DNA of 64,000 nt from Rhodobacterales bacterium (GCA_965222665.1 CBDCUM010000010.1:1640853-1704852), one strand, 5' to 3'; shown: positions 12,386-16,084, numbered from the stretch's first letter. The notes: generated by a model from the letters alone, not told the origin. Translations and numbers: made by a program.

Positions 12386-13990
12386 ATGGCGCGTGGACAG
12401 CCTGGGCACACGGGAAGCGGCAATACGGTGTCGCCAAACGGCGGGGCCACGACCGGATACGAGGTCGAGCTTTGGGCGATGGCGGCTGCGCTCCGGGGCT
12501 CGATGGATGCCGCCGAGTACAAGCATGTCGTCCTCGGGCTCATCTTCCTCAAATACATCTCCGACGCGTTCGAGGAGCGCCACGCCGCGATTCTGGCCGC
12601 ATGGGGCGATGAAGCCGCGGAGGACCGTGACGAGTACCTCGCCGAGAACATCTTCTGGGTACCACCAGAGGCACGCTGGAACCACCTCGAGGCCCAGTCG
12701 CGCCAGCCCAAAATCGGCCAGCTCGTCGACACTGCGATGGCCTGCATCGAGCGCGACAACCCGGTGCTCGCCAACGTGCTGCCCAAAGACTATGCCCGTG
12801 AGGGACTCGACAAGCAGCGTCTCGGCCAGCTCATCGACATGGTGAGCAATATCCGGGCCGGCGACGAGGACGCCCGCCTAAAGGATGTGTTCGGCCGGGT
12901 ATACGAGTATTTCCTGTCGCAATTCGCCAGCGCCGAGGGCAGGAAGGGCGGCGAGTTCTACACCCCGCGCTGCGTCGTGAGACTCATGGTCGAGATGCTG
13001 GAACCCTATCGCGGCCGGGTCTACGACCCCTGCTGCGGCTCGTCCGGCATGTTCGTGCAGTCGGTCGCGTTCATCGACGCCCACGCCAGCGGCAACGGCA
13101 ACGGCAATGGGGGCAAGGCGCGCGGCGACATCTCGATCTACGGCCAGGAATCGAACTACACCACCTGGCGGATCGCACAGATGAACCTGGCCATCCGCGG
13201 CATCGAGGGCCAGATCGCCCACGGCGACAGCTTCCACAACGACCGCCATCCCGACCTCAAGGCCGATTTCATCCTCGCCAACCCGCCCTTCAACGTCTCC
13301 GACTGGGGCGGCGAGCGGCTCGCAGACGACAGTCGCTGGCAGTACGGCGCGCCACCGCCGCGCAACGCCAACTTCGCCTGGGTGCAGCATATCGTTCATC
13401 ACCTGGCGCCGCGGGGCGCGGCCGGCTTCGTGCTCGCCAACGGCTCGATGTCGTCTGCCCAGTCTGGCGAGGGCGAGATCCGCAAGAACCTGGTCGAGGC
13501 GGAGCTCGTCGACTGCATGGTGGCGCTGCCGGGCCAGCTGTTCTACGCGACCCAGATCCCCGTTTGCCTCTGGTTCCTCGCCCGCGACCGGAGCGGCGGC
13601 AGCTTCCGCGACCGGCGCGGCGAAATCCTATTCATCGACGCCCGCAGGCTCGGCGCCATGGTCGACCGTACCCACCGCGAGCTGAACGGCGACGATATCG
13701 CCCGCATCGCCACCACTTACCACGCCTGGCGCAACGAGGACAGCGCGGGCGATTACTGCGACATACCCGGCTACTGTCGGAGCGCGCCGCTGGACGAAGT
13801 GCGCAAGCACGGCCACGTGCTCACCCCCGGCCGCTATGTCGGGGCGGAAGCGCAGGTAGACGACGGCGAACCGTTCGATGTGAAGATGAGGAGGCTGGTC
13901 GCGCAGCTTCGCGAACAGCAGAAGAAGGGGGCCGAGCTGGACGCCGCCATCGCCGCCAATCTCGACGCGTTGAGGTTCGCGGACAAATGA
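12386..13990 (+). CDS. hsdM: Type I restriction-modification methyltransferase subunit
   Basis: [37 protein letters not shown] 12386 preferred over 12275. Confidence 0.95.
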
Positions 13991-14015
13991 CGATTCGGGA
14001 ACTGAAGGGGTAGCC

Positions 14016-14432
14016 ATGATCGACTATGACAAGTTCCGGTTGTCTCTGAAGCGCCTGGAGGAACAGCACGACAATCACCGGGAGTTGGACGACGCGTTAC
14101 CCGAGCTGATCCGTGAGGGCATCGCCGAGTCCGTCATCCAGCGCTTCGAGACCTGCTACGACTGCCTTTGGAAGGTGTTGAAGAGATACCTAAACCAGGA
14201 ACTGGGCATTGCCGAGCCACCCAACAGCCCCAAACCCCTCATCAGGCTGGCCCATGAGAACGACATGTTCGCGTCCTCGTTGGACCAGTGGCTACAATAC
14301 GCCGATGCTCGCGTGGCCACGTCGCACGATTACGACGGCGAGAAGGCGAAGGCCTGTCTCGAGTTGATCCCCGACTTCATCGACGACGCCATCGGCCTCT
14401 ATCAGACGATGACCTGTGAAACATGGGAGTAG
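14016..14432 (+). CDS. HEPN protein (HI0074 / nucleotidyltransferase substrate-binding family), predicted RNase toxin
   Basis: IQRFETCYDCLWKVLKRYL and RVATSHDY (RX4HXY). Confidence 0.88.
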   Translation: MIDYDKFRLSLKRLEEQHDNHRELDDALPELIREGIAESVIQRFETCYDCLWKVLKRYLNQELGIAEPPNSPKPLIRLAHENDMFASSLDQWLQYADARVATSHDYDGEKAKACLELIPDFIDDAIGLYQTMTCETWE

Positions 14433-16084
14433 ACCGGCCCATCGACGTCACCACCGGGCAGCGCAAGACGATCACGGCACTGCTCGAACAGTATCTGCCC
14501 GGCACGGCCGCCTGGGTCTACGGTTCCCGCGCAAACTGGACCTCGCATTCCCAATCCGATCTCGATTTGGTGGTATTCGCCGGACCCGGACAAGCCCGGC
14601 AGGTCGGCGACCTGCGGGAAGCATCCGAGGAAAGCGACCTCCCGTTCCGGGTGGACCTGTTCGTCTGGGATGAAGTTCCCGAGTCGTTTCGTCAGCAGAT
14701 CGAGGTAGAGCACGTTGTGCTTGTGCCCGCTCACCATGCGGGCCTCGAGGCGCAAGTACCGCGAGTGTCGGAAACATGGCCAAAAGTTCCATTTGAGAAC
14801 CTACTTGCTGAACCGGTTCGCAATGGAATTTGCAAGCCAAAGGAATTTCACGGTCGCGGAACTAAGATCGTAAACATGGATGAACTGTTTGCTCACCCGA
14901 GACTCTCTCCCGTGCCCATGAAGCGAGTGGAGCTTTCGGAATCCGAAGCGGGCCGATTCCTTGTCAAGGCAGGTGACTTGCTCTTCGCGCGCCGTTCGTC
15001 AGTGGCGGAAAGTGCTGGCAAGTGCTGTGTGGTCCTTGATGTTGACGAGCCGACTACCTTTGAATCCTCAATCATCCGTGCACGGCCGGATTTCACAAAG
15101 GCGGACTACCTTTATCTTTATTACTTTTTTAGCTCACCCTTGGCGCTACATCAATTTGACACAATCCGACGGCAGGTAGCGGTAGCCGGGATTGCTGGAA
15201 GAGACCTTTCGCAACTCCTGGTTCCGGTCCCACCCATTCCTCAACAACACACCATCGCCCGCTTCCTAGGCAGGCTAGACGACAAGATCGAGTTGAACCG
15301 TCACATGAACGAGACGCTGGAGGCGATGGCACGCGCTCTGTTCAAGTCATGGTTCGTCGATTTCGATCCCGTCCGCGCCAAAATGGACGGCCGCGACTCC
15401 GGGCTGCCGCGGCTCCTGGCCGACCTGTTCCCCGATAGGCTCGTCCACTCCGAACTCGGCCAGATTCCAGAAGGTTGGAAGATCTCGACAATCGGCGCGG
15501 AGGTGGACGCCCTGGGAGGCGCAACCCCTAGCACGAAAGATCCCGCGTACTGGAATGGAGGCCAGAATAATTGGGCTACACCGAAAGACCTTTCCAAATT
15601 GTCCTCTCGTGTTTTGTTAGAAACTAGTCGAAAGATCACCGACGCGGGTGTTGACAAGATTGGCTCCGGCCTCCTGCCGGTAGGTTCGTTACTCCTGTCT
15701 TCACGAGCACCCATCGGCTACTTGGCTATTGCCGGGAAACCGACTGCTGTAAACCAGGACTTCATCGCGATGGTCTGTGAAAAGCGTCTATCAAACCTCT
15801 TTGTCCTGTTCTGGTGTTACCAGAACCTCGACCACATTAAGAGTATTGCCGACGGTTCCACCTTCGCTGAGATTAGCAAGAAACTATTCCGCCCCATCCC
15901 GCTTGTCGTCCCGTCCAAACACATTCTCTCCGAATACGACAAGGTGGCTCGCCCGCTTTTTGATCAGATTGTCGTAAACGCGAAGGAATTGGAGATACTG
16001 ATCGATCTTCGTGACACACTCCTTCCCGATCTCATTTCTGGCAAGCTATGTGTGAAAGGCCTCCAGACACACTTCGCGAAGTAA
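14423..16084 (+). CDS. hsdS: Minimal nucleotidyltransferase (MNT) fused to type I specificity subunit
   Basis: First ~105 aa contain GSRANWTSHSQSDLD (GSX10DXD); then two TRDs with LDDKIELN..MNETLEAMARALFKSWF, IPEGW, LRDTLLP. Confidence 0.9.
   Translation: MGVDRPIDVTTGQRKTITALLEQYLPGTAAWVYGSRANWTSHSQSDLDLVVFAGPGQARQVGDLREASEESDLPFRVDLFVWDEVPESFRQQIEVEHVVLVPAHHAGLEAQVPRVSETWPKVPFENLLAEPVRNGICKPKEFHGRGTKIVNMDELFAHPRLSPVPMKRVELSESEAGRFLVKAGDLLFARRSSVAESAGKCCVVLDVDEPTTFESSIIRARPDFTKADYLYLYYFFSSPLALHQFDTIRRQVAVAGIAGRDLSQLLVPVPPIPQQHTIARFLGRLDDKIELNRHMNETLEAMARALFKSWFVDFDPVRAKMDGRDSGLPRLLADLFPDRLVHSELGQIPEGWKISTIGAEVDALGGATPSTKDPAYWNGGQNNWATPKDLSKLSSRVLLETSRKITDAGVDKIGSGLLPVGSLLLSSRAPIGYLAIAGKPTAVNQDFIAMVCEKRLSNLFVLFWCYQNLDHIKSIADGSTFAEISKKLFRPIPLVVPSKHILSEYDKVARPLFDQIVVNAKELEILIDLRDTLLPDLISGKLCVKGLQTHFAK

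Follow-up and report, generated by a model that had tools for sequence, protein, structure and literature searches.

A predicted HEPN/MNT toxin–antitoxin pair with its antitoxin fused to HsdS in an hsdR-less type I restriction-modification remnant

Described HEPN/MNT and embedded toxin systems compared with the locus

Toxin–antitoxin pairs of a HEPN protein and a minimal nucleotidyltransferase (MNT) are established, and so, separately, are type I restriction operons that harbour toxin genes. The two meet in the stretch considered here, a window of 64,000 nucleotides from a Rhodobacterales bacterium (GCA_965222665.1 CBDCUM010000010.1:1640853-1704852; positions are counted from its first letter), in which hsdM, a HEPN gene and a single open reading frame (ORF) joining an MNT domain to the specificity subunit HsdS follow one another. 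The locus is probably the hsdR-less remnant of an acquired type I restriction-modification (R-M) operon that embeds a class I HepT/MntA (type VII) pair, the antitoxin of which is tethered to HsdS. An antidote built covalently into the DNA-specificity subunit is an architecture common across many phyla and apparently an undescribed one.

According to PMC7641770 and PMC11586414, the MNT protein of class I systems transfers AMP onto the tyrosine of the RX4HXY motif, blocking the RNase. Like SO_3166/SO_3165 of Shewanella oneidensis (Yao et al. 2020, PMC7641770), the locus has a HEPN protein with RX4HXY beside an MNT with GSX10DXD; the set published there explicitly takes in PF08780/PF01909 pairs, and the predicted mechanism, poly-AMPylation of the motif tyrosine, would be shared. 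The class I sequence definition, a PF08780 HEPN protein with RX4HXY and a neighbouring MNT of the PF01909 clan with GSX10DXD, describes the pair found here, and the toxin–antitoxin assignment proposed in an earlier note on this DNA thus agrees with the published definition (PMC7641770). Unlike the class I systems, the locus has the toxin gene first, and the antitoxin, a free protein of ~130 aa in the published set, is the N-terminal domain of a type I HsdS. The HEPN protein belongs to the HI0074 (PF08780) branch and not, as in SO_3166/SO_3165, to DUF86.

The best sequence matches among solved structures are those of the Haemophilus influenzae pair HI0073/HI0074, namely 1no5 (HI0073, 1e-11) for the MNT part and 1jog (HI0074, 6.4e-10) for the HEPN protein, the R-x4-H-x-Y of which aligns with that of HI0074. 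HI0073 and HI0074 are separate small proteins, with the MNT first. No link of HI0073/HI0074 to hsd genes was met in the literature examined.

PrrC of EcoprrI (type Ic hsd) is a HEPN-superfamily RNase inside a type I operon, where it is restrained by the R-M part (PMC3710099, PMC3506569). The HEPN gene described here likewise lies inside a type I hsd operon, between hsdM and hsdS, as it does in 13 of the 14 relatives that carry the fusion. Unlike PrrC, a large ABC-ATPase–HEPN protein masked by binding of the Hsd complex, the predicted RNase has 138 aa, only PF08780 and no N-terminal ABC-ATPase. Its predicted silencer is an enzymatic domain that belongs covalently to HsdS, and sensing of anti-restriction is hypothetical. 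Covalent fusion of an MNT is known from FhepTA, a fused MNT-HEPN protein in which HEPN is oligoAMPylated (PMC13000451). There the MNT is fused to its own toxin, whereas here it sits on an unrelated DNA-recognition subunit and the toxin is separate.

Cargo between hsdM, hsdS and hsdR has been treated as "guilt by embedding" (10.1101/2024.01.29.577857) and in a survey of PIN toxins in R-M operons (PMC5499597), and the HEPN/MNT pair is placed in the same way. The cargo in those descriptions, as far as their accessible text goes, consists of separate genes, unlike the antitoxin considered here, which is fused to a core R-M subunit. The PIN survey also gives three operons in which a PIN toxin accompanies HsdM and HsdS and the restriction subunit is lacking (PMC5499597). 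The words "MNT" and "nucleotidyltransferase" do not occur in the main text of the preprint 10.1101/2024.01.29.577857. According to Anantharaman et al. (2013), R-M-associated HEPN domains are fused to nucleases, helicases and ATPases and not to methylases; Figure 5 of that paper bears the label "RM_TRD" and may depict a related neighbourhood. Full-text searches, with most subscription journals outside their coverage, found no published description of an MNT-HsdS fusion. Databases label the fusion only as "restriction endonuclease subunit S", and gene-neighbourhood surveys therefore see a lone HEPN toxin without its antitoxin.

The three genes and the recurrence of the fusion

The features of the locus, all on the plus strand, are the following.

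12386..13990, plus strand: hsdM, type I N6-adenine DNA methyltransferase subunit, 534 aa from the chosen ATG, the ORF being open from 12275
14016..14432, plus strand: HI0074-type HEPN gene, predicted RNase toxin (HepT-like), 138 aa, PF08780 at 4.8e-23
14310..14333, plus strand: codons of R99-VATS-H104-D-Y106 (by translation), the predicted RNase motif with the predicted AMP-acceptor tyrosine
14423..16084, plus strand: MNT::HsdS, one ORF of 553 aa, with PF18765/PF01909 over residues 15-101 and PF01420 in two stretches
14423..14432, plus strand: overlap of 10 nt in the sequence between the ATG of the fusion and the HEPN stop, predicted translational coupling
14435..14725, plus strand: MNT domain (HI0073/MntA-like minimal nucleotidyltransferase), residues 5-101, PF18765 at 1.4e-08 and PF01909 at 3.9e-05
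14735..14773, plus strand: disordered linker between MNT and HsdS, residues 105-117, model pLDDT <50
14774..16081, plus strand: HsdS proper, with the first target recognition domain (TRD1) at residues ~118-270, a central helix at 272-312, TRD2 at ~340-496 and a C-terminal helix at 499-539

All three co-directional genes are intact. The earlier note had read hsdM, a HEPN gene with RX4HXY and an overlapping MNT-HsdS ORF from the sequence, and each of these was found in its place; the fusion of antitoxin and HsdS in a single ORF was also confirmed. HsdM matches Pfam HsdM_N (2.2e-25) and N6_Mtase (3.6e-102) and, in PADLOC, MTase_I (8.4e-211). MTase_I and Specificity_I are the only PADLOC calls on the locus, PADLOC having no model for the HEPN protein. 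The latter passes the curated cut-off of TIGR01987, the HI0074 family (58.4 vs 55.8 bits), and R99 and Y106 are nearly invariant in the alignment of its homologues. The MNT domain carries G34-S35-x10-D46-L-D48, plus D78. Over 217 homologous domains, G34 is kept in 217, S35 and D46 in 216 each and D48 in 215, while position 78 is D or E in 208. The HsdS part is closest by sequence to the solved archaeal HsdS 1yf2 (6.6e-44) and to EcoKI HsdS, 2y7c. An AlphaFold2 model of the whole fusion (mean pLDDT 83.9) consists of a folded MNT, the disordered linker and a canonical HsdS of TRD1, long helix, TRD2 and long helix; the linker varies in length and sequence across the homologue alignment. A complex prediction with MNT residues 1-112 and the HEPN protein given as alignments returned a score of 0.00, which weighs neither for nor against binding.

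Decay of the trio was assessed by counting departures from consensus in columns that 90% or more of the homologues share, the threshold for HEPN being 85%.

HsdM: 4 of 175 conserved columns deviate; family median 3 (n=57)
HEPN: 0 of 12 conserved columns deviate; family median 0 (n=16)
Fusion, close homologues: 7 of 214 deviate; family median 4 (n=40)
Fusion, broader set: 1 of 85 deviates; family median 4 (n=89)

The off-consensus residues of the fusion (G197S, G241A, L245F, R294H, T422S, V423L and G446D) are confined to the HsdS part and leave the MNT motifs untouched. Judged by these columns, the fusion is no outlier and the trio is not detectably decayed. The earlier note had remarked on off-consensus HsdS residues as a sign of possible decay; the residues exist, seven in number, and the caveat itself falls away with counts that stay within the family range.

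The recurrence of the fusion was followed in 80 hsd loci from species-representative genomes, found through two conserved HsdS peptides and representing the best 80 of 556 confirmed stretches. A count of such fusions had been proposed earlier, and it gives 14 fused loci of the 80 (L007, L008, L009, L011, L015, L024, L027, L028, L029, L033, L053, L063, L072 and L078). In 13 of them the fusion is immediately preceded by a HEPN gene, L015 being without one, and in most the HEPN and MNT frames overlap at start and stop by 1-10 nt (for example L009, L011, L027, L028, L053, L063, L072 and L078). In L010, the MNT is a separate ORF adjoining a broken hsdS. Among proteins, an NTase domain and PF01420 occur together in 93 of the best 120 whole-length homologues. 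When the MNT part was searched against proteins 304-968 aa long, 1009 clusters out of 1175 candidates matched at E<=1e-5, and PF01420 is present in 119 of the best 120 of these. The hosts of the hsd relatives belong to the Acidobacteriota, Chloroflexota, Nitrospinota, Rhodothermota, Actinomycetota, Binatota, Verrucomicrobiota and Pseudomonadota. Three other studies contribute runs (X1, X3 and X7) whose Logan contigs read across the HEPN/fusion overlap as well as the linker from MNT to HsdS. Judged from these sequences, a sub-type with the HEPN/MNT pair between hsdM and hsdS, and the MNT joined to the HsdS N-terminus by a linker of ~13 residues, is widespread.

In a plasmid collection, tblastn of the fusion found 50 records with HsdS relatives, and none of the matches listed extends into the catalytic N-terminal region of the MNT; the one coming closest among them, H13, begins at residue 63 with 29% identity.

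Several variants of the arrangement were observed. L009 has a fused MNT-HEPN ORF directly before MNT::HsdS (L009:9971-12426), and L008 has two HEPN/MNT pairs in succession (L008:8776-11638). Some proteins have two MNT domains ahead of HsdS (variants among P0056, P0117, P0121, P0130, P0178 and P0190), and some MNT::HsdS proteins carry an added PF04480/PF18741 (DUF559-type endonuclease) or GIY-YIG domain.

The fused state is clustered on the HsdM tree, where it takes 7 changes against a mean of 12 for shuffled labels, with none of 500 shuffles as low; the fused label must change no fewer than 6 times on this tree. It comprises 59 rows, 22 of the 80 loci without a usable HsdM ORF of 480-660 aa having been left out. 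The MNT tree has 94 columns, too short for resolving fusion origins. The history of the fusion is either a single origin followed by recombination or several origins.

Pairwise distances between the HEPN proteins of 13 loci follow those between their MNT domains (Mantel r=0.73, p=2e-4; partial r=0.77 given HsdM). The correlations with HsdM over the same loci are -0.20 for HEPN and 0.12 for MNT. On these distances, HEPN and MNT together behave as a co-diverging cassette that would be exchanged among otherwise similar hsd operons.

The gaps between hsdM, hsdS and hsdR of the relatives hold other cargo as well. The 121 ORFs scanned in L005-L084 include Abi_C (6 loci), the DUF1016/YhcG nuclease, RhuM and Fic/DOC; SIR2_2, Schlafen/AlbA_2-HATPase, GmrSD, McrBC, DarT with Macro, and PIN; and SduA_C, Cap15, KwaB, DUF4411 with an M78 peptidase, DUF1828/1829 and DUF6978. 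A PF05168 HEPN and MNT pair follows hsdS in L025, and L079 has two MNT genes and a HepT-like gene between hsdM and hsdS.

Absence of hsdR and the surroundings of the locus

That hsdR is missing from the window had been noted earlier, and a search with our own profile, built from the HsdRs of eleven relatives, likewise found none there. In the whole genome (8.85 Mb, 96% complete), TIGR00348 and PF04313 gave 0 matches and PF18766 stayed under its cut-off with 20.6 bits, elsewhere in the genome. With the same HsdR profile, the sole trace genome-wide is a C-terminal relic of 52 aa (C11:922873-923085, minus strand), which lies alone on another contig and matches profile positions 840-891 with 49 bits. 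The genome has one HsdS and one PF08780 gene. Compared with a complete type I R-M system, HsdM and an HsdS with two TRDs and two helices are present and HsdR is absent.

The relatives are different in this respect. Twelve fused loci extend 6.5 kb or more beyond hsdS, and in 11 of them a full-length hsdR was found, as a rule preceded by none to several cargo genes; it encodes proteins of 1016-1096 aa with HSDR_N, SWI2_SNF2, T1R_D3 and T1RH-like_C; in L009, hsdR was not found within 10 kb downstream. The loss of hsdR is therefore not part of the design, and the "no hsdR" of the earlier note is not a feature of the system. The copy in the window is a truncated, horizontally acquired remnant amid insertion sequence (IS) debris. 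A search of 40 related genomes found no close homologue of the locus (34% identity at best), which marks it as an acquired element; this element has either lost hsdR or never received it.

The junction from hsdS to the aminotransferase gene downstream, without hsdR, is present in Logan contigs of four studies, with 0, 13, 6 and 21 differing letters over ~2260 nt. The hsdR-less state is real and common to diverged strains. As these contigs keep the junction despite up to ~1% divergence, the trio has persisted without hsdR.

The two boundaries of the remnant are the following.

10080..11849, plus strand: left boundary, an IS4/Tn5-type element of 1.77 kb with Tnp_DNA_bind, DDE_Tnp_1 and Dimer_Tnp_Tn5, the transposase frame being broken
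16085..17410, plus strand: right boundary, a 322-nt spacer and then a broken class IV aminotransferase gene, with Aminotran_4 split over two ORFs

The left IS sits inside a gene of the metallo-beta-lactamase (MBL) fold, and a frame runs from the N-terminus of this gene into the transposase (ORF 9601-11508). The extent of the IS was set by an inverted copy of 94.6% identity at C10:1709307-1711076, ~58 kb away and ~4.5 kb past the end of the window; contig C10 also carries dispersed, weaker copies (66-70%). A tyrosine-recombinase fragment suspected at 11747-12034 was dropped, as it gave no Pfam match at 1e-5. Where the right boundary lies, relatives have cargo genes and hsdR, and no HsdR-like frame occurs here. 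The aminotransferase gene (16407-17410) is in two frames. Contigs of X7 lack 1 letter at 16314, 7 at 16485 and 14 at 16934, and those of X3 lack the 7; the gene thus differs by indels between strains and may be intact in some. The IS, the hsd remnant and the broken aminotransferase gene lie between the two copies of a direct paralogous duplication (9173-10084 vs 17544-18456, 88-93% identical), which comprises a small minus-strand ORF without Pfam matches and the beginning of the MBL-fold gene.

The window carries at least six transposase genes and is unusually rich in IS. Tn5-like transposases of ~760-790 aa are encoded at 25341-27701, 43660-45960, 48633-50930 and 60886-63162, and their N-terminal ~200 residues match Pfam DruA (Druantia). 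An IS66 transposase gene lies at 35991-37460 and another DDE gene at 60096-60839. Among the transposase genes are those for a 559-aa Fic/DOC-domain protein (37358-39037, minus strand) and for a 1893-aa protein with leucine-rich repeats and a Calx-beta domain (54059-59740, minus strand). The genome has 12 contigs and 5.65% contamination, and five genomes of the same genus measure 2.6-4.7 Mb; it is either greatly expanded and IS-rich or partly a mixture.

Readings of the locus and their meaning

On the reading preferred here, the cassette most likely stabilises an orphan methyltransferase. By their sequences, HsdM and the HsdS part would form an M2S1 methyltransferase still methylating a bipartite target. 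By analogy with the class I systems, the tethered MNT domain would AMPylate Tyr106 of the HEPN RNase and keep the RNase silent. As the only antidote is part of HsdS, removal or silencing of hsdS would free the RNase and lead to growth arrest. The toxin would then be neutralised only where hsdS is present and expressed, which would make hsdM-hsdS addictive, lock the cassette to the specificity gene and leave hsdR dispensable. The cassette would thus stabilise hsdM-hsdS and travel with both, while hsdR, having no such protection, could be lost, giving the state seen here.

Several points weigh against this reading. Toxicity and addiction, like AMPylation and methylation, are inferences. Against NCBIfam NF047752 MntA_antitoxin, which has a cut-off of 60 bits, the MNT domain reaches 31.6 bits (E 1.2e-07, residues 22-102). 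The toxin comes first here and in the fused relatives. To our knowledge, HI0074-type HEPN proteins themselves have not been shown to be AMPylated. The MNT is almost always 5' of HEPN according to the survey of Anantharaman et al. (2013). The HEPN motif is degenerate, with RX4H lost, in L029, L063 and L010, and these three, as well as L015 with no HEPN gene, keep all catalytic residues of the MNT. The catalytic residues thus outlive the HEPN motif or gene, and the MNT may therefore act beyond silencing the HEPN RNase. The MNT tree interleaves fused and stand-alone forms (33 changes over 143 rows, at least 7 of them forced), and three identical MNT domain sequences occur both fused and stand-alone; either the tether is dispensable, as the frequent interconversion of the two forms suggests, or many of the short forms stem from faulty gene calls. 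The persistence of a single hsdR-less lineage, finally, is one observation. Unfused members of the same MNT subfamily make up 427 short clusters, up to 81% identical; some of these may have arisen through gene calling in metagenome assemblies.

The tether could also make the pair a guard of the restriction complex. In this case the MNT would be active only with an intact M2S or R2M2S complex, and anti-restriction proteins (DNA mimics) or loss of the complex would free HEPN and abort the infection. For complete systems, the corresponding proposal is that the type I complex serves as an antitoxin platform, HEPN being AMPylated only while M2S(R2) is made and unperturbed, with RNase-mediated arrest otherwise. 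Such a role is suggested by the attachment of the antitoxin to a core subunit of the complex, which is kept across phyla while the TRDs swap, by the many abortive-infection and defence genes held in the slots of the same R-M family, and by the precedent of PrrC/EcoprrI as far as it is described in PMC3710099 and 10.1101/2024.01.29.577857. However, no computed datum ties the activity of the MNT to the state of the complex or sets a guard apart from plain addiction or hitch-hiking, the long, disordered linker predicts no fixed contact in the model, and the 427 unfused clusters of the same MNT subfamily are interleaved with the fused ones. This genome, moreover, has no restriction left to guard. 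A guard function is rated as unlikely, and the platform proposal for complete systems as unlikely to the same degree.

Less probable still, and improbable on the whole, is that the trio is an inert relic, non-functional DNA heading for loss, the frames of which are intact only through recent truncation. The missing hsdR would fit such an origin, as would the IS interrupting another gene on the left, the broken aminotransferase gene on the right and the at least six transposase genes of the window. Against this stand the three intact ORFs, whose deviations at conserved columns stay within the family range, the presence of every catalytic motif and the hsdR-less arrangement kept in contigs of four studies with up to ~1% divergence.

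An older view of HI0073/HI0074 regards the pair as a two-subunit nucleotidyltransferase, and the NCBIfam family is still named "nucleotidyltransferase substrate-binding subunit". It would account for the MNT residues kept where RX4H of HEPN has decayed (L029, L063, L010) or HEPN is missing (L015). RX4HXY is nevertheless intact here and in the HEPN sequences of 12 of 15 relatives, and in the tested cases given in PMC7641770, pairs with both motifs acted as toxin and antitoxin, so this view is very unlikely to apply.

Lastly, the fusion as a one-off frameshift or assembly artefact of a single record, the outcome that by the earlier note would have overturned its proposal, is refuted with near certainty by the recurrence of the architecture in ~1000 clusters and 14 of 80 loci and by the independent contigs of three studies that bridge the junction, and it also sits ill with a linker that is in frame between well-folded domains of the model.

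The architecture offers a clean handle on what switches type VII toxins on. It also offers one on whether a mechanical coupling joins embedded toxins to the restriction complex or they are mere hitch-hikers. AMPylation is easily read out, the tether can be severed genetically, and natural copies without hsdR are a ready-made deletion. If the guard proposal were true, the guard would be an enzymatic analogue of PrrC, born of an antidote fusing to a core restriction subunit, and loss of the operon or anti-restriction attack would become RNase-mediated growth arrest.

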